From IMG/VR virus record IMGVR_UViG_2609459799_000005: a stretch of 16,426 bases of DNA. One strand, given 5' to 3'. Every line of letters starts with the position of its first letter. The stretch's first letter is position 1. A model generated the notes under the pieces. That model had not been told where the DNA came from, did no database searches, and worked only from the letters and a program-made list of their open reading frames with translations. A program made the translations under genes and the position numbers. Origin of the DNA: a virus. Lineage: Duplodnaviria; Heunggongvirae; Uroviricota; Caudoviricetes. Shown piece by piece: positions 518-16,426 of this stretch.

Positions 518-1186
518 ATGGTGAAATCAATGAAAAAAAACACAGATGATGGGGCTAAAATTTACACACCACTTACCCTAAAGCTTTATGACTGGTGGGT
601 TTTGGGAGTATCAAATCGGCTTGCATGGGGATGTCCTACAAAGGAACACCTTCTTCCACACTTTCTGGAACATGTAGGTAACAACCATCTGGATATTGGT
701 GTTGGAACTGGGTTTTACCTTACTCACGTACCTGAGAGTAGTCTGATATCTTTAATGGATTTGAACGAAGCTAGCCTGAACGCGGCATCTACAAGGGCTG
801 GGGAATCAAAAATTAAACATAAAATTAGCCATGATGTTTTTGAACCTTATCCCGCGGCGTTACATGGTCAATTTGATTCCATTTCCATGTTTTACCTTCT
901 TCACTGCCTGCCTGGAAATATATCTACAAAAAGCTGTGTAATACGCAATGCGGCGCAGGCCTTAACTGACGATGGAACTCTATACGGAGCCACAATTCTT
1001 GGCGATGGAGTTGTGCACAATAGCTTCGGTCAAAAACTGATGCGCATTTACAATCAGAAAGGCATCTTTTCAAACACAAAAGATTCCGAAGAAGGCTTAA
1101 CACATATACTCTCAGAGCATTTCGAGAATGTTAAAACCAAGGTTCAAGGTACTGTAGTAATGTTTTCCGCTTCAGGGAAAAAATAG
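518..1186 (+). CDS. Putative class I SAM-dependent methyltransferase-like protein (prophage moron); likely true start at the internal Met near 530
   Basis: 222-aa ORF in an AT-rich island. Gly-rich motif DIGVGTGFYL resembles SAM-binding motif I. A GGTGA Shine-Dalgarno precedes the second ATG (MKKNTDD...). Sits downstream of tfa, as ybcY does in DLP12 (from memory, not verified). Confidence 0.55.
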   Translation: MVKSMKKNTDDGAKIYTPLTLKLYDWWVLGVSNRLAWGCPTKEHLLPHFLEHVGNNHLDIGVGTGFYLTHVPESSLISLMDLNEASLNAASTRAGESKIKHKISHDVFEPYPAALHGQFDSISMFYLLHCLPGNISTKSCVIRNAAQALTDDGTLYGATILGDGVVHNSFGQKLMRIYNQKGIFSNTKDSEEGLTHILSEHFENVKTKVQGTVVMFSASGKK

Positions 1187-8393: not shown

Positions 8394-8885
8394 TCACCGT
8401 TGCCGCAGTAAATGGCGGCATGGTTCGGTATGGGTCTGTACCTGGCAGAGGTCATCCAGATCATCGTCACGTCGTACCATATCCCGGGCAGGGTTGAAGG
8501 CGTTGGCCGCCACCTCCACAGTCGGGGCCAGAATCGTGTAACCCGCCGCCTGCCGCCAGTTCAGTAACAGTGCAGTCATCATGATCCCCGCGGCCAGCGT
8601 GGACTTCGAGTTTTTCTTGGGGATAAGGATAAAAACTTCCTTGATATGGCGTACACCGGTCTGCGCATCGTAGGAGCCAAACAGGGCCGCCACCAGGTCA
8701 AACACCCACGGTGCACAGGACTCCCCGAACGTAGGGCTACCAGGTGCATCCACAATCCGCAGTTGTTTAAAAATCGCCAGGGCATGTGCGGCCTCGTCCG
8801 GATAAATCGGAGCCGGAATAATCGACAGCCCCTTTTTCAGGCGCTCTGCCCAGTCCGGGCAGGCTGTGCTCCATACAGGTATCAT
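8394..8885 (-). pseudogene. terL: Terminase large subunit, N-terminal fragment of about 163 aa (Terminase_1/HK97-type)
   Basis: Start overlaps the terS stop (ATGA). Contains a deviant P-loop-like segment (ILIPKKNSKSTLAAGIMMTALL) as in HK97-type TerL N-termini. The ORF ends after 163 aa, where full TerL is 450 aa or more, and gene I begins 55 bp downstream. Confidence 0.7.
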
Positions 8886-10540: not shown

Positions 10541-10765
10541 TCAACACACTGGTTGTAATGCAGCGGATACCATGCGGCATTTAGCGGCATTCATCGTACA
10601 CTCCACGGTTAGCTCTTCATTCGTGGCATTCACCTGAAAGGTCCGGGAGTGTAATTGCGTACATTTACCACTGAACGAACCTTCAACAAGAACACGACCA
10701 CGCTGCAAAATACGGAACGGAATTGTTCCCTGAAAAGGTTCTACGGTTACCCGTAATTTCTTCAT
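10541..10765 (-). CDS. Hypothetical 74-aa protein translationally coupled to Rz
   Basis: ATG overlaps the Rz stop (ATGA). No signal peptide or recognisable motif. A bor-like or moron function is possible but unsupported. Confidence 0.4.
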
Positions 10766-11256
10766 GTATCCTCCGGATAATAAAAAGCCAGCTTAGTGCA
10801 CTGAGTGCGGATATATTCCTGCGCCCCTTCCAGCTGCTTCTGCATTGTCATCAACCGTTCTCTGAGGATGAAATAATCCCGTTCAGCGGTGTCTGCCAGT
10901 CGGGGGCCGGTTGCATTATCCACGCTGGAGGTGCCGGTGGCTTCACGCACGGTACCGGGGCAGGTGGCGTTGACCCGCAGGCGCTTACGACCAGCGGCAA
11001 CATCAGCGCGCAGAGTTTCATTTTCAGCTCTCGCATCGGCTAATTCCTTCGTGTATCTGGCATCAAGCGCAGCGACATCTCGCTGGCGCTGCTGCATGTC
11101 AGTAATAGTGGCATTCGCCAGTTTCAGCTCACTGACTTTTTTATCGCGCTGCGCTTTGTAGGTGATGGCGTTATCGCGGTAATGATTCAGCCCCAGACTA
11201 AGCACACCACAGGCTACCAGCATGACAATAATCACCACACACAGAACACGGTTCAT
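10762..11256 (-). CDS. Rz: Rz i-spanin (inner-membrane spanin subunit)
   Basis: From the internal Met: [39 protein letters not shown]...[25 protein letters not shown], collinear with lambda Rz. The 28-codon N-terminal extension in the ORF track is judged spurious. Confidence 0.85.
10851..11036 (-). CDS. Rz1: Rz1 o-spanin lipoprotein, embedded in Rz in an alternative frame
   Basis: [51 protein letters not shown] has a lipobox (VSAC) and a Pro-rich body closely matching lambda Rz1. The true start is probably the Met at about 11021. Confidence 0.85.
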
Positions 11257-11257
11257 A

Positions 11258-11344
11258 TCACCACCAACGGATTGCCCAGACCAGAACAGCAATGGCCACA
11301 ATACGAATGGCAAATGCCATTGCCCGAATAAGTTCAGCACTCAT
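11258..11344 (-). CDS. Candidate small hydrophobic peptide b (28 aa, [28 protein letters not shown]); stop overlaps the Rz start region
   Basis: ATG ORF whose TGA lies 1 nt upstream of the Rz ATG (TGATATG). Paralogous to peptide a (9 identical and about 10 conservative positions; several codon differences are synonymous). Weak Shine-Dalgarno. Confidence 0.3.
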
Positions 11345-11355
11345 CTTTTTAAAGT

Positions 11356-11472
11356 TCACGATTTCAGCGCAATGACCAGTTTTGCCAGCCCATATAGCAT
11401 CGGAGACACAGCAATACCAACAGCCACCCACTTAATAGCAAAAGCCAGCGCTCTGCTGATGTCATCAGTCAC
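11356..11472 (-). CDS. Candidate small hydrophobic peptide a (about 38 aa, GTG start, (M)TDDISRALAFAIKWVAVGIAVSPMLYGLAKLVIALKS)
   Basis: C-terminal part of the TTG-initiated 90-aa ORF in the track. Start chosen at a GTG preceded by GGGG; shares the motif RAxAFAI(K/R)xVA with peptide b. Confidence 0.3.
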   Translation of the reverse strand: MTDDISRALAFAIKWVAVGIAVSPMLYGLAKLVIALKS

Positions 11473-11474
11473 TG

Positions 11475-11606
11475 TCACCCCAGCAGCCCCGACGAAGACA
11501 ACATCACCCAGGCGAGGGACAGAAAAAGAGCAACCAGCATTAGTGAAAATGAAATACCGACAATCACACACAGGACCTTTGCCGGCGTTATGAGTTTGTC
11601 TGACAT
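11475..11606 (-). CDS. Candidate small membrane peptide (43 aa, MSDKLITPAKVLCVIVGISFSLMLVALFLSLAWVMLSSSGLLG)
   Basis: ATG preceded by a strong Shine-Dalgarno AAGGGG with a 5-nt spacer. One predicted transmembrane helix. Below the 60-aa cutoff of the ORF track. Confidence 0.35.
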   Translation of the reverse strand: MSDKLITPAKVLCVIVGISFSLMLVALFLSLAWVMLSSSGLLG

Positions 11607-11608
11607 AG

Positions 11609-11704
11609 CTACCCCTTAATTGCCACAATTAACTGGGATACTACCCATAAAAAAGGGATGCTCCAGACCAGCAAAAATTTCCAGTTTGGTAATTGACTAA
11701 TCAT
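11609..11704 (-). CDS. Candidate small membrane peptide (31 aa, MISQLPNWKFLLVWSIPFLWVVSQLIVAIKG)
   Basis: ATG preceded by AGGGAG with a 9-nt spacer. Its stop TAG lies inside the Shine-Dalgarno/start region of the next small ORF. One predicted transmembrane helix. Confidence 0.3.
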   Translation of the reverse strand: MISQLPNWKFLLVWSIPFLWVVSQLIVAIKG

Positions 11705-11775
11705 GAGTCGCAACTCCCTAATCAGTTTGCTAAAATCAATCAAGGCAGCCTCCCATAGCTTACTGCCATAAAAAC

Positions 11776-11808
11776 AAAACCCCGCTTGCTGCCAACAAAC
11801 GGGGTTTT
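11776..11808 (-). terminator. Rho-independent terminator immediately downstream of the endolysin gene (stem-loop usable on both strands)
   Basis: aaaaccccg-N15-cggggtttt, followed on the minus strand by ttttgtttttat. Confidence 0.6.
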
Positions 11809-11898
11809 TACTTTTATTCACTTACGTTTCGCCAGTTCGCAGGATTTCGTGTTATCCGCCCGCGTGGCCATGCCTTATTTTTCAGCAAAATATTCTGC

Positions 11899-12432
11899 TT
11901 ATCTGTCGATACCCCAGCACGCCAGCGCGCTCTCCTGGTCACGACGGGATACCTGACCGTAGCAGTTGTTTGAACGAATACGGCAGTCTCTGCCACCGTC
12001 CTTAATCCACCAGCGAATCGCCTCACACGCTCCCCTGCGGTCACCAGCATTCAGCCGCTTATAAAACGTCGACGGGAAACACTTACCGGGGCCAATGTTA
12101 TAGGGACAGAATGACGCTATACCCGCTTTCTGTGGTTCGGTCAGTGGAACTTTAATATTGCGCTCCACCCATGCCAGCGCCTTATCCCGTTCAATGGCAT
12201 TAACCTGGTCGCATTTTTCCTTCGACAGTTTCATGCCCGGAATAACAGGTTTACCATCCACCATTGTGGCACCGCGGCAGATGGTCCAGATACCCGCACC
12301 ATCACGGTATGCCGTTGTGTGGTTACCTTCTTTTTCATCCAGAAACTGGTCGAGAATATCAGGCGCAGGCGCACCGATGGCAATCAACGCCAGAACGGCA
12401 GCCGACAGGCCATATTTGATTTTGGTGTTCAT
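11899..12432 (-). CDS. R: Phage endolysin (lysozyme), probable SAR-type with N-terminal hydrophobic segment
   Basis: 177 aa. YGLSAAVLALIAIGAPAP hydrophobic N-terminus, then EGNHTTAYRDGAGIWTICRGAT... typical of lambdoid prophage lysozymes (RrrD-like, from memory). Confidence 0.9.
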   Translation of the reverse strand: MNTKIKYGLSAAVLALIAIGAPAPDILDQFLDEKEGNHTTAYRDGAGIWTICRGATMVDGKPVIPGMKLSKEKCDQVNAIERDKALAWVERNIKVPLTEPQKAGIASFCPYNIGPGKCFPSTFYKRLNAGDRRGACEAIRWWIKDGGRDCRIRSNNCYGQVSRRDQESALACWGIDR

Positions 12433-12488
12433 GGATATTTATCAGGATTTATCGGTTCCGAATCCCTGGATATGTTAAATCTTCAGCC

Positions 12489-12515
12489 CGCCAGCGGTAG
12501 GACACTGGCGTTTTT
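12489..12515 (+). terminator. Terminator-like hairpin on the plus strand between the endolysin start and the divergent 104-aa gene
   Basis: cgccag-N10-ctggcg followed by ttttt. Could be an attenuator or leader element, or a stop for transcription antisense to R. Confidence 0.4.
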
Positions 12516-12560
12516 CCTGATGGCTGAAATATATCTGACAATTTCAGTAGAGGATTAACC

Positions 12561-12875
12561 ATGCATAACGATCAACATAATTATGATTTATGCCTGCAAG
12601 CCATAAATGAGCGGGTAAAATCAGAGTGCCTCTTACTCCTCCCACAAGAACACGATGCAGTAAAATCCATTCAGGCTGAGCCGTATGGACATCTCACACC
12701 TGTGACTCTCGGCATTATCGCCAGAGCATTAACACAGCCCATGCTTATGCGTATTAAGACCAATATAAATAACTGGTTGAATGAAGAATTAAGCTACCTT
12801 GATTGTGAGTGGGACAATCATTACGCAAAAACACAAAAAGAACGCATCTTCAGTCGATTATCCAGCAACAGATAA
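12561..12875 (+). CDS. Hypothetical protein (104 aa), AT-rich moron occupying the position where a holin gene is expected
   Basis: ATG with Shine-Dalgarno GAGGA and a 7-nt spacer. Roughly 40 percent GC against about 53 percent in flanking phage genes. No transmembrane segment or recognisable motif. Convergent with the nanS-like gene and divergent from R. Confidence 0.5.
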   Translation: MHNDQHNYDLCLQAINERVKSECLLLLPQEHDAVKSIQAEPYGHLTPVTLGIIARALTQPMLMRIKTNINNWLNEELSYLDCEWDNHYAKTQKERIFSRLSSNR

Positions 12876-12884
12876 CGAGCCACC

Positions 12885-14594
12885 TTATATACGCCCTTTC
12901 AGATAAGTCATCCCCGGCTGCATCCAGTCAACAGGTGCTTTCTTAAAGGGCGTATTCCCGAACTCGCCCAACTTTGTGTTTCCTGCTTTCTTGTGATGCA
13001 TCAGATTCAGTTTGCCGTCTGTGGTCTGGGTGAAGAACGACATCAGGAACGGGTTACCAGTCCCGGTCATCGCCACGACGTCAGGTAACGCTACATCGGT
13101 ATACAGATAAATTCCCAGACCGAACTGGTTGTTGGTCAGTGCGCCTGACAGTCGAAACTTACAGCTCAGTCTGCCACCCCGTGTCAGCAGGGAGACTGCG
13201 TCATCCACCGGGCGCGTCAGGGACCAGGCTTTATTGCTCTGCTTGGTGATCTTAAATACACCATCTGACAACTGAATTCCGCCATTCTTAATGCTCCAGC
13301 CCTGCGCAGCAGCATCTCCGGCTGTCGGCAACAGGGAGATTGTGCGTACGGATGCATCTTCAGACGGCCCCGATGGCGTGTCGCCGCCGGGCGAGGGTTT
13401 GATTTCCGGTGCCTTACCACTAATGAAGGCTAAGGTGCGACCGGCTACGTTCAGAATAGCAGTTGCCATACGATCGGGAATAATGCCACGACGCGCCCAT
13501 GAGCTGAAATGCGTCGGGCGATTTGATGATACCCAGTTTTTGTTCGTTCGGGATGCCGAACCGTAATAACCAGACCCGACAATATCAGGATCTTCTGACG
13601 GGTTGTTTGTCGGTGTATTAACTCCGCTACCATCGGTCATAAAGGGAACAAAATAAATCTGCTGGGATTCTTTACCTTTATATGCACCATATACCACTTC
13701 ATATTGTGTACCGTGTTCTTGTTTCCACGCGTATGTCGTGTCGCCACAAATCCAGGGGACTGATGCCGGACTTCCACCGTGACACTGCGCCGCCAGCCCG
13801 GCAAGGTCAGCACGGAACTGCTGTACCATTGCAAGAAATGCTGCTGGCTGCTGGGCGTAACTGGCATTCTTCATATCGAATTCCCCCTGCATCCAGCATA
13901 TCGCCAGCAAAACGTTTTTCGGGTTTTTCTGCAATGCTGCCTTCGTGCGGAAAAGCAGATCCTGATATAACGGCTTACCCACTCCCCAGCGAGCCGAATC
14001 CTGACTGGCCCCCGTGGACTCGCTGAATGTCCCCTCCGTGCCCTGGGTGAATGCCGAACCACCACGACAGCATGGTACCAGCAGGATCCCCGCATTATTA
14101 GGGATATACGGAAGCAGTTTTTTGGCAATATGTAAGCCCTGTCCGACACAGCCGTACTGCCCTTTGCTCAGGTCAGCCCGGGGATGGTTAATCGTACTCA
14201 TATCCTGAACATCATGCAGACAATGGTCAGCAGGAATGATGTCGTTAAATACGCATACTTCACCACCGGGAGTCACTGTGTTACGACGGGCCAGTTGCTT
14301 AATGCGCGGATGGGGCGCATCGTATGAATCCGGAAGCGGAAGCCCTTCACCGTAAGCCATGGCATTAGACTGCCCGGCCAGTACGATGACGTAGTACCAC
14401 TCCGGCTCAGTTGCACCACTGACGACCACATCACCTTCTGCGACAATCGCCTGAATAAGTGCTGCGCCATCATCCGTATACGAAGAAAACGGCCCGCCGT
14501 ATGGTTGCCATCCTTCACGAATTTTTTGAGCAAGTGCATCAGCAAGGTCTGACGGCGATACCGCCCTGACAACATCATAGTGTTTAAATGCCAT
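12885..14594 (-). CDS. nanS: Prophage sialate O-acetylesterase (NanS-p-like; N-terminal DUF1737-like region plus SASA/SGNH-type esterase domain)
   Basis: 569 aa. YYVIVLAGQSNAMAYGEG carries the GQSN catalytic-serine motif of 9-O-acetylesterases. Position between the tRNA module and the lysis genes mirrors nanS-p in EHEC lambdoid prophages. Confidence 0.8.
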   Translation of the reverse strand: MAFKHYDVVRAVSPSDLADALAQKIREGWQPYGGPFSSYTDDGAALIQAIVAEGDVVVSGATEPEWYYVIVLAGQSNAMAYGEGLPLPDSYDAPHPRIKQLARRNTVTPGGEVCVFNDIIPADHCLHDVQDMSTINHPRADLSKGQYGCVGQGLHIAKKLLPYIPNNAGILLVPCCRGGSAFTQGTEGTFSESTGASQDSARWGVGKPLYQDLLFRTKAALQKNPKNVLLAICWMQGEFDMKNASYAQQPAAFLAMVQQFRADLAGLAAQCHGGSPASVPWICGDTTYAWKQEHGTQYEVVYGAYKGKESQQIYFVPFMTDGSGVNTPTNNPSEDPDIVGSGYYGSASRTNKNWVSSNRPTHFSSWARRGIIPDRMATAILNVAGRTLAFISGKAPEIKPSPGGDTPSGPSEDASVRTISLLPTAGDAAAQGWSIKNGGIQLSDGVFKITKQSNKAWSLTRPVDDAVSLLTRGGRLSCKFRLSGALTNNQFGLGIYLYTDVALPDVVAMTGTGNPFLMSFFTQTTDGKLNLMHHKKAGNTKLGEFGNTPFKKAPVDWMQPGMTYLKGRI

Positions 14595-14787
14595 GAATCC
14601 TCCCGGCCGGGATAATATTGTGAGTAAAATGAGGAGCGGGCTGAAGTCCGGAAGCTACAGGACAATGGCAGAAGAGAGACAATAGCCCGCAATACGAAAA
14701 GGCCGCGCTATTGCGCAGAGTGATTACTGTCGGATATTATTCGCCAGCTGAAATATTACTTCACGTTTTGTTGTTTATTCCTTGCCG

Positions 14788-14815
14788 CCCGCGTCTCCCT
14801 GCGCGGGATTTTTTT
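14788..14815 (+). terminator. Rho-independent terminator on the plus strand in the tRNA-nanS gap
   Basis: cccgcg-N8-cgcggg followed by seven T. Confidence 0.5.
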
Positions 14816-14820
14816 GTCCA

Positions 14821-14845
14821 TAAGAAAGCCCCTCCGGAGAGGGGC
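14821..14845 (-). terminator. Rho-independent terminator on the minus strand downstream of the tRNA module
   Basis: gcccctc-cgga-gaggggc, followed on the minus strand by tttctta. Confidence 0.5.
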
Positions 14846-15082
14846 TGGAGAGTGGCGCTATGTGCCATTGCATGGTGCCGGGTGCCTCCCGGTGAATTCA
14901 GTACCAGCACCTGAATCCGCGATTATCCCATATACCTACTCGCTGATTGCCCCTCCGCACAGGGGGATTCACCATGCCAGTTTCTTTTAACAAACTCCCC
15001 GCAAAACAGACAACTGTCAACCGTCTGAATTGTGAGACATTTAAAAAAAAGGCCCGCAAAAGCGAGCCAGGGAAAATAAGTG

Positions 15083-15159
15083 TGGCGCGTTGTACTGGAT
15101 TCGAACCAGTGACCGATTGCTTAGAAGGCAATTGCTCTGTCCGGCTGAGCTAACAACGC
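15083..15159 (-). tRNA. tRNA-Arg (anticodon UCU), phage-encoded
   Basis: Manual fold: acceptor GCGTTGT/ACAACGC, D-stem GCTC/GAGC, anticodon stem ATTGC/GCAAT with loop CTTCTAA, T-arm ACTGG-TTCGAAT-CCAGT, discriminator G, encoded CCA. Confidence 0.85.
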
Positions 15160-15172
15160 ATGATGCAGATAA

Positions 15173-15249
15173 TGGACCGCCATCGGGGACTCGAACCCCG
15201 CGCAACCAGCTTCGAAGGCTGGCGCTCTATCCTGATGAGCTAATGGCGG
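15173..15249 (-). tRNA. tRNA-Arg (anticodon UCG), phage-encoded
   Basis: Manual fold: acceptor CCGCCAT/ATGGCGG, D-stem GCTC/GAGC, anticodon stem CCAGC/GCTGG with loop CTTCGAA, T-arm CGGGG-TTCGAGT-CCCCG, encoded CCA. C1:G72 and a U discriminator are unusual. Confidence 0.75.
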
Positions 15250-15256
15250 TATGTGA

Positions 15257-15332
15257 TGGTGGCCCTTGCTGGATTTGAACCAGCGACCTGGCGATTATGA
15301 GTCGCTCGCTCTCACCACTGAGCTAAAGGGCC
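15257..15332 (-). tRNA. ileZ: tRNA-Ile2 (anticodon CAU, lysidine-type), phage-encoded
   Basis: GGCCCTTTAGCTCAGTGGTGAGAGCGAGCGACTCATAATCGCCAGGTCGCTGGTTCAAATCCAGCAAGGGCCACCA is very similar to E. coli tRNA-Ile2 (ileX). First gene of the three-tRNA module found downstream of Q in Stx-type lambdoid phages. Confidence 0.85.
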
Positions 15333-15381: not shown

Positions 15382-16426
15382 TCAAACGATTAAATCCTGA
15401 ACTTCCCTGACTGTCTGCTCAAAACGTCCGGTCTCCAGCTCAACACCAATCGCACGACGCCCCAGTGCCATCGCCGCTTTTACCGTTGAACCCGACCCCA
15501 TGAAAAAATCCGCAACCAGATCACCAGGACGACTACTTGCGCTGATTATCTGCTGCAGCATTTCTGCCGGTTTTTCGCACGGATGTTTCCCTGGATAGTA
15601 CTGCACCGGTTTATACGTCCACACATCGGTGTACGGCACCTGCGCCGTCACACCAAAATACCGCCGCAGATGCTTATATTCACTCTGCAGCTCCACATAC
15701 TGCCGGTTCAGTGACGTATACGTATCCACCAGCTGGTGGTGGGGCTTTTCCAGTTCACCGCGCTGATGTTTCTCTTCTGCCACCCGGGCAAACAGCGACT
15801 GTAATTTCAGATAATCGCTTTCGTTCGGTAGCTGCCACTGACTGGCACTGAACCAGTGCGACACCATGTTTTTCTTTCCTGTGGCATCTGCAATCTGTTT
15901 TGCCGTTATCCCCAGGGCCGCGCGCGCATCACGAAAGTAAGAAATCAGCGGGGCCATCACATGCTGTTTCAGTGCACTGCCCTTCGCCGCATACCCGGCA
16001 TCTTTCGGACGATACGGCCCCTGATAATGTTCCGCGAACAGAATGCGCTCTGTGGCGGGGGAATACGCCCGCAGGCTTTCCTTGTTGCATCCGTTCCAGC
16101 GTCCGGACGGCTTCGCCCAGATAATATGGTTCAGCACACTGAAGCGTTCACGCATCATGATTTCGATATCAGATGCCAGGCGATGACCACAGAACAGGTA
16201 AAGACTTCCGGCAGGTTTCAGCACCCGCCAGAACTGCGCCAGACACTGGTCCAGCCACTTCAGGTAATCATCGTCGCCCTTCCACTGGTTATCCCAGCCT
16301 TCAGGCTTCACTTTAAAGTACGGCGGGTCCGTGACTATCAGGTCAACAGAATTTTCGGGTAACGACCGGATAAATTCCAGGCAGTCGGCGTTGATTAACT
16401 CACAACTGGATATTTTTACAGTATTA
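15382..16426 (-). CDS. DNA amino-methyltransferase (N6-adenine or N4-cytosine, beta-class); 5' end lies beyond the window edge
   Basis: The frame stays open to the window edge and the upstream translation gives ...DCLEFIRSLPENSVDLIVTDPPYF (catalytic DPPY motif IV). C-terminal FFMGSGSTVKAA is the SAM-binding FxGxG motif. The ORF-track start at 16311 is a GTG internal to the gene. Confidence 0.85.
   Translation of the reverse strand, partial: NTVKISSCELINADCLEFIRSLPENSVDLIVTDPPYFKVKPEGWDNQWKGDDDYLKWLDQCLAQFWRVLKPAGSLYLFCGHRLASDIEIMMRERFSVLNHIIWAKPSGRWNGCNKESLRAYSPATERILFAEHYQGPYRPKDAGYAAKGSALKQHVMAPLISYFRDARAALGITAKQIADATGKKNMVSHWFSASQWQLPNESDYLKLQSLFARVAEEKHQRGELEKPHHQLVDTYTSLNRQYVELQSEYKHLRRYFGVTAQVPYTDVWTYKPVQYYPGKHPCEKPAEMLQQIISASSRPGDLVADFFMGSGSTVKAAMALGRRAIGVELETGRFEQTVREVQDLIV

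Follow-up and report, generated by a model that had tools for sequence, protein, structure and literature searches.

A very probable holin deletion masked by an in-frame esterase fusion in the lysis cassette of a lambdoid prophage remnant of Escherichia coli

The window described here, meaning the whole stretch of 16,426 nucleotides in the virus record IMGVR_UViG_2609459799_000005, is an entire 16.4-kb contig that corresponds to the late region of a lambdoid (Stx-phage-like) prophage adjoining ompW. Its minus strand encodes a DNA methyltransferase (15382-16311), three tRNAs (15083-15332), an ORF related to NanS-type sialate O-acetylesterases, the endolysin R, a group of small hydrophobic ORFs and the spanin genes Rz/Rz1; a 104-aa gene is located between the esterase and R on the plus strand. 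The tRNAs, Arg(tct), Arg(tcg) and Met/Ile(cat), are clustered upstream of the esterase as in Stx phages, and no stx genes occur between them and the esterase (14595-15332). Past Rz, the minus strand carries genes for an HNH endonuclease, the small terminase subunit, a fragment of TerL, tail gene I, a fragment of J and tail-fibre genes. Near the end of the prophage, a class I SAM-dependent methyltransferase of 222 aa (518-1186, plus strand, 40-43% GC) is encoded opposite the adjacent tail-fibre assembly gene and looks like another accessory (moron) gene.

The structural gene set is incomplete: TerL is reduced to a 163-aa fragment adjoining tail gene I, J is 631 aa long with half of it missing, and there are no portal, capsid, head-tail, tail-tube or tape-measure genes. 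When the window was compared with a relative whose integration site is also ompW-yciE, positions 1-413 proved to be the chromosomal ompW flank, and further junctions were revealed at about 5425 (lom'-J') and at 8430-8491 (K'-TerL'). The element is a remnant, non-inducible for virion production, from which no virions are possible. An earlier sequence-only reading had proposed, as one of two possibilities, a lysis-defective, domesticated prophage in which the holin had been exchanged for a cargo gene; the truncated terL and J bear out the defective state, and the cargo swap does not stand, as discussed below.

Between the start of R (12432) and the stop of the esterase ORF (12885) the only minus-strand ORFs are of 37, 33 and 30 aa, and no PHROG match was found for any of them. 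Relatives carry at this side of the cassette a holin gene, S, whose product matches Pfam Phage_holin_2_1 (PF04971), the P21 holin S family; no ORF of this kind (about 70 aa, two transmembrane segments, charged C-terminus) occurs upstream of R in the window. The whole window was searched by tblastn for P21-type S, lambda S and two other holins of relatives, four types in all; nothing better than E ~0.5 was obtained, and S itself gave nothing at E<=1e-5, its best match at E<=10 being a chance one. The earlier statement that no minus-strand ORF of 60 aa or more precedes the endolysin is correct, the longest having 37 aa without PHROG or holin match; a short or non-canonical holin ORF that it might have overlooked in 12433-12884 was sought by ORF list, PHROG and tblastn, and was not found. 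From the nanS-like esterase to the endolysin, the cassette is devoid of a holin gene. The interval has a GC content of 42.3%, as compared to 52.2% for the window, so that the island of roughly 40% GC previously described is indeed GC-poor, although its value is close to rather than quite 40%.

A hairpin occurs between R and the 104-aa gene (outer stem span 12482-12528). Its inner stem, CGCCAG...CTGGCG (12489-12510), encloses a loop of 10 nt and is followed by five T on the plus strand. The predicted energy is -20.5 kcal/mol on the plus strand (z -2.7) and -22.5 kcal/mol on the minus strand (z -4.3). The structure had been described as terminator-like, and the hairpin is real, but the consensus terminator scan did not call it (loop of 10 nt, only five T), which leaves a weak terminator candidate on the plus strand. 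On the minus strand the hairpin would form part of the late mRNA, about 60 nt ahead of the start codon of R; given that folding is better on this strand, it may belong to the leader of the R late mRNA. It recurs with changed bases in alleles of the 104-aa gene with 77-78% identity (L031 and L033 among the loci compared) and in locus L034; alleles with 48-53% identity lack it and have instead, about 80 nt ahead of the ATG, a perfect TATAAT.

The 104-aa gene (12561-12875, plus strand) has a GAGG Shine-Dalgarno 7 nt upstream of its ATG, in agreement with the earlier description of a plus-strand gene with a good ribosome-binding site. It corresponds to orf6 of Stx2 phage 86 (WP_000551290, PHROG 1853), and the protein matches phrog_1853 over residues 1-103 (E 8.4e-50), a family without annotated function that is also matched by a 53%-identical paralogue. 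No match was obtained in Pfam, NCBIfam, PADLOC or PDB sequences, consistent with the previous remark that no motif could be recognized. The gene shows conserved length and a pairwise dN/dS of ~0.15-0.25 (where dS is unsaturated), from which it can be concluded that it is a real gene under purifying selection. It has some features of a moron: a GC content of 42.3% against 52.2%, location on the opposite strand and absence from the syntenic relatives L002 and L004.

The endolysin R (11899-12432, minus strand, 177 aa) is intact. It matches Pfam Phage_lysozyme (PF00959, 2.8e-25) as well as R21 (3HDE) and RrrD (4ZPU), is 100% identical to R of E. coli 55989 and 97% identical to R of phage 86. The catalytic residues E35/D44/T50, spaced E-8aa-D-5aa-T, align with those of R21, and the N-terminus, MNTKIKYGLSAAVLALIAIGAPAP, is a weakly hydrophobic segment rich in Gly/Ala/Ser and preceded by basic residues (KD19 1.88 at residue 9). 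The triad and this segment together indicate that R is probably a signal-anchor-release (SAR) endolysin, an assignment made from sequence features. The spanins are also preserved as a two-component system: the i-spanin Rz (10762-11256, minus strand, 164 aa; Pfam Phage_lysis, PF03245, 7e-51) is intact and 100% identical to its counterpart in L002, and the o-spanin lipoprotein Rz1 (10851-11036, minus strand; Pfam Rz1, PF06085, 1.7e-21) is embedded in it in another frame. Inside the late operon, directly after the R stop and before the small ORFs and Rz, the terminator scan identified a strong terminator-like hairpin of 15 pairs with a T run (11776-11808, minus strand).

Three tiny hydrophobic ORFs that are annotated in relatives are located between R and Rz on the minus strand, encoding 43 aa (11475-11606), 51 aa (11356-11511) and 28 aa (11258-11344); a possible fourth one of 31 aa (11609-11704) occurs within the same cluster (11258-11821). 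The three match PHROGs 4906, 3246, 1115 and 4493, all without annotated function. The 51- and 28-aa peptides look paralogous, since both match phrog_4493 and phrog_3246, and homologues of the 43-aa ORF are found directly upstream of Rz in many relatives. The sequence-only reading had suggested that small membrane ORFs downstream of R could supply the holin function, in which case they would act as holin or releasin and the cassette would be complete without S. Their nature as single-pass hydrophobic peptides (KD19 1.9-2.9) inside a lysis cassette fits this idea, and helpers of SAR endolysins other than holins do exist, such as releasin gp25 of phage Mu (PMC9239132). Nevertheless, relatives with a retained S (55989, L002 and L004) have identically annotated small ORFs, with a sequence identity of up to 100%, and S accompanies the 43-aa ORF in 24 of 25 IMG/VR loci, so that the small ORFs do not co-vary with the loss of S. 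The Pfam search, including holin families and DUF2730, gave no match for the 43-aa ORF or for the 90-aa frame containing the 51-aa ORF; the 28-aa ORF was scanned against PHROGs only and did not match a holin or releasin family. The ORFs, with just 28-51 aa, do not resemble a Mu-type releasin, in which an N-terminal transmembrane segment is combined with an acidic cytoplasmic domain of about 70 aa, and the peptides lack the charged C-terminal tail typical of holins. Argued from this co-occurrence, the small ORFs do not seem to be a holin substitute, and the proposal is highly improbable.

What happened to the holin gene is apparent from intact relatives, a comparison that had been recommended as a check. 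In E. coli 55989 and in the Stx2-converting phage 86 the order is nanS, S (a class II, P21-type pinholin), orf5 (YdfR/DUF1327), orf6 on the opposite strand and R: both S and orf5 occupy the site, and the 104-aa gene is there as well. Positions 12433-12956 of the window are identical to phage 86 at 524/524 nucleotides, covering orf6, which is the 104-aa gene with 100% identity, and the 3' end of orf5. By exact-match extension from both flanks and by alignment, a deletion junction with a 3-bp microhomology (ATT) was located at 12954-12956. The exact match of the left flank runs to 12956 (orf5 codon 247) and that of the right flank starts at 12954 (esterase codon 547). The missing segment amounts to 1,329 bp with respect to 55989 and to 1,330 bp with respect to phage 86, the difference of 1 bp being due to the frameshift that makes orf5 a pseudogene in 55989. 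It comprises the 73 codons at the 3' end of the esterase, the entire S gene and residues 1-246 of orf5, and its left end is 78 bp past the stop of the 104-aa gene. The junction falls just outside the interval on which the sequence-only reading focused, inside the apparent 3' end of the esterase ORF. In 55989, orf5 (L001, 3579-4394) has a 1-bp deletion relative to phage 86 and is annotated as a truncated YdfR-family pseudogene, which points to a decay of orf5 independent of the deletion in the window.

As a result of the deletion, the esterase ORF is a chimeric NanS'-'Orf5 reading frame of 569 aa (12885-14594, minus strand), recognized by Pfam, tblastn and the position of the orf5 stop codon. 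It is composed of residues 1-547 of a NanS-p-like sialate O-acetylesterase followed in frame by the last 22 codons of orf5. In tblastn, residues 1-547 are 100% identical to 55989 and the tail corresponds to orf5 residues 241-268; the remnant of the orf5 3' end (12876-12953, minus strand), which belongs to its C-terminal domain (phrog_1085) and is 100% identical to phage 86 through 12956, is read as the tail of the fusion. Because the joint is in frame and the stop codon of orf5 is used, the ORF looks intact. Pfam recognizes DUF1737 and SASA, as in NanS-p proteins, and DUF6645 at profile positions 1-81 of 119 only; this domain is truncated, 73 residues having been replaced by 22 from orf5. The C-terminal domain of NanS-p is a lectin-like module (PMC10462455), and the fusion has lost part of it.

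The arrangement could be explained by a simple series of steps. The ancestral cassette would have contained nanS, S, orf5 (DUF1327/YdfR with a C-terminal extension), orf6, R, the small membrane ORFs and Rz/Rz1. One deletion by illegitimate recombination would have joined nanS codon 547 to orf5 codon 247 over the 3-bp microhomology and, as the frames happened to match, a 569-aa fusion ORF would have been created that hides the scar. The 104-aa gene, an accessory gene resident in cassettes of this type, would have been spared by the deletion. With high confidence, the holin was lost by this 1,329/1,330-bp deletion in the course of ordinary prophage decay, the 104-aa gene being a resident and not a replacement. 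Judged by comparison with relatives, the loss of the holin appears as one of at least three deletions in the prophage. The cassette type from which the window derives had already been deposited with phage 86.

The distribution of the fusion also bears on whether the arrangement without holin might be an assembly artefact, through collapse or chimerism of the contig. The window comes from a draft assembly and is short, and several near-identical lambdoid cassettes are present in E. coli genomes (median 3 places per genome), repeats that can mislead assemblers. However, an exact-protein look-up retrieved the 569-aa fusion from at least four E. coli assemblies (four listed; five contigs in all), namely GCA_000704545.1 (JNRF01000053.1, E. 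coli 3-020-07_S3_C1), from which the window itself comes, two sibling assemblies and GCA_011317395.1, with identical gene order in the four. Three of them probably come from one sampling series; in GCA_011317395.1, from an unrelated project, the fusion is located on a 281-kb contig. Moreover, the homology at the junction is just 3 bp, which offers no repeat for an assembler to collapse, and an artefact can practically be discounted. The junction 31-mer was not found in exact scans of GTDB representatives, IMG/VR and JGI metagenomes, nor does any of the complete E. coli genomes span the 12954-12956 junction, from which the deletion allele is considered rare. The locus of GCA_011317395.1 (L086) is 100% identical to the window from nanS to about window position 11216, inside Rz, and about 93% identical to the end of Rz. 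Beyond Rz it is unrelated to the window, with a DUF1441 gene, a GpA-type terminase and then an integrase; compared with window positions 10600-14594, a recombination breakpoint inside Rz joins the same module to another backbone. This identity followed by divergence indicates that the holin-deleted module exists in nature and was carried into, or kept in, a mosaic backbone.

The context of the 104-aa gene was surveyed in 80 IMG/VR loci with homologues, 73 of which had enough upstream and 61 enough downstream sequence. R was found within 600 nt on one side in 71/73 loci and P21-type S on the other side in 59/61, the other two having a different holin. Replacement of the holin by the 104-aa gene as cargo in a swap event is suggested by its GC of 42% versus 52%, by its opposite orientation and by the relatives L002 and L004, where S, ydfR and R occur but the gene does not, which implies that it was acquired at some point. 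Such a replacement is scarcely credible, given that the gene coexists with an intact S in phage 86 and in 55989, where it adjoins orf5 and R, and with S in those 59 loci, that its acquisition predates and is independent of the holin loss, and that this loss maps to a single clean and separate deletion of 1.33 kb. The earlier wording, by which the 104-aa gene had taken the place of the holin, does not hold.

The deletion reading leaves the 104-aa gene as a resident neighbor of the lysis genes, and its family proved to be narrow: in a set of 5.8 billion proteins it forms 13 clusters at 90% identity. When 1.84 billion representatives were searched with a profile, 21 matched; the short ones were all relatives of the same kind, and three giant proteins matched the profile in multiple stretches. 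All named matches are from E. coli, and a family search of GTDB species representatives found none. Among 5,426 complete E. coli genomes, alleles of the window type are present in 95 and a paralogue of about 50% identity (49-53%) in another 628, so that the family occurs in ~13% of these genomes. Among deposited phage genomes the gene is confined to phage 86 and the Stx2_12E129 prophages, and in RefSeq it is always annotated as a hypothetical protein. A literature search on the accession numbers of the protein found no mention, and a paper on gene expression in Phi24B lysogens mentions phage 86 only for other genes.

The gene is always antisense at the holin-endolysin junction, beside three unrelated holin types, and its link to the holin position holds across holin families. 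In L034 (3525-4318) a distant homologue (~48-52% identity) is divergent from a phrog_1350 holin, and in L043 (144-950) a homologue in the same identity range is convergent with a 90-aa ORF that has two predicted transmembrane segments. No sign of co-evolution was observed when alleles of the gene were compared with S, as alleles of ~49% identity pair with identical S. The C-terminal ~150 aa of orf5 (phrog_1085) constitute a separable domain or gene (L003, 3918-4724; L034, 4340-4816; L037-L046). This domain may or may not be accompanied by the DUF1327/YdfR part and in some cases forms a gene by itself; in several allele groups it converges with the 104-aa gene, the two stops being separated by 10-25 nt. 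The phrog_1085 domain and the 104-aa protein may form a two-gene module.

The AF2 model of the 104-aa protein (pLDDT 88.4) contains five helices and yielded no significant fold match. The maximum 19-residue Kyte-Doolittle mean is 1.16 and there is no transmembrane segment, so neither the sequence nor the soluble five-helix bundle of the model has the character of a holin or antiholin; a small cytoplasmic five-helix protein is predicted. A consensus scan found no sigma-70 site upstream and no terminator downstream of the gene, and the upstream regions aligned across alleles do not share a -10/-35. In intact relatives its stop codon is 10 nt from that of the convergent orf5. In the lysogen the gene would have a transcript of its own, antisense to the late operon, and our best guess is that the product is a lysogen-expressed accessory (moron) protein that acts by binding to proteins. 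It may have a part in the control of lysis: the gene might silence leaky holin expression by convergent transcription, or the protein might bind a lysis protein or, alternatively, work with the convergent C-terminal domain of orf5 as a two-gene accessory module. That PHROG 1853 is a lysogen-expressed factor functionally tied to lysis control is a speculative proposal, and rather an unlikely one.

The cassette can be compared with several known systems. In phage 86 (AB255436 / NC_008464) it consists of nanS, S, orf5, orf6, R, ant and Rz/Rz1. The window shares with it an identical orf6, orf5 3' end and R upstream region as well as the order and strands of the remaining genes; it differs in the 1,330 bp that it lacks (nanS 3' end, S and orf5 residues 1-246), in the small hydrophobic ORFs that occur instead of ant between R and Rz and in the absence of stx upstream of nanS. 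With phage 21 (S21, R21, Rz/Rz1) it has in common the E35/D44/T50 triad and weakly hydrophobic N-terminus of R and an Rz with embedded Rz1. Unlike phage 21, it is devoid of the pinholin partner, and cassettes of this type carry a YdfR-family gene and an antisense gene between S and R.

Cryptic E. coli prophages of the DLP12, Qin and Rac type offer another parallel, as piecemeal internal deletions have left isolated late genes in them; the window likewise shows truncated TerL and J, no head or tail-shaft genes, and remaining lysis genes that are intact. DLP12 and Qin keep their holins, essD and essQ in the K-12 annotation. What the window has lost, in contrast to these prophages, is specifically the holin; the deletion is recent, and its flanks remain 100% identical to those of intact relatives. 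[quoted passage not shown] The window resembles Mu in having a SAR endolysin and spanins without a holin; it differs in the absence of any DUF2730 match in Pfam and in that the lack of a holin is secondary, resulting from a deletion, and not a designed system.

The holins of Stx-type phages are pinholins of the P21 family (PMC10462455). According to PMC9239132, SAR endolysins that lack a holin partner escape spontaneously, at a low rate, and lysis becomes later, broader and less synchronous. Without its pinholin, the SAR endolysin of the remnant would leave the membrane only spontaneously and, provided that transcription of the late operon persists (Q and the late promoter pR' lie outside the contig), lysis would be late and asynchronous, but not abolished.

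In terms of annotation, what seems to be a holin-less cassette is a scar masked by an in-frame fusion; the sequence alone suggests a replacement, and comparison with intact relatives resolves the missing holin at once. In biological terms, routine prophage decay has left a SAR endolysin and spanins without their pinholin trigger. The residual interest resides in the 104-aa protein as a conserved, E. coli-restricted family encoded antisense in the lysis cassettes of many EHEC/EAEC prophages. If its involvement in lysis control were true, the survival of the gene in this remnant would represent domestication and not chance.
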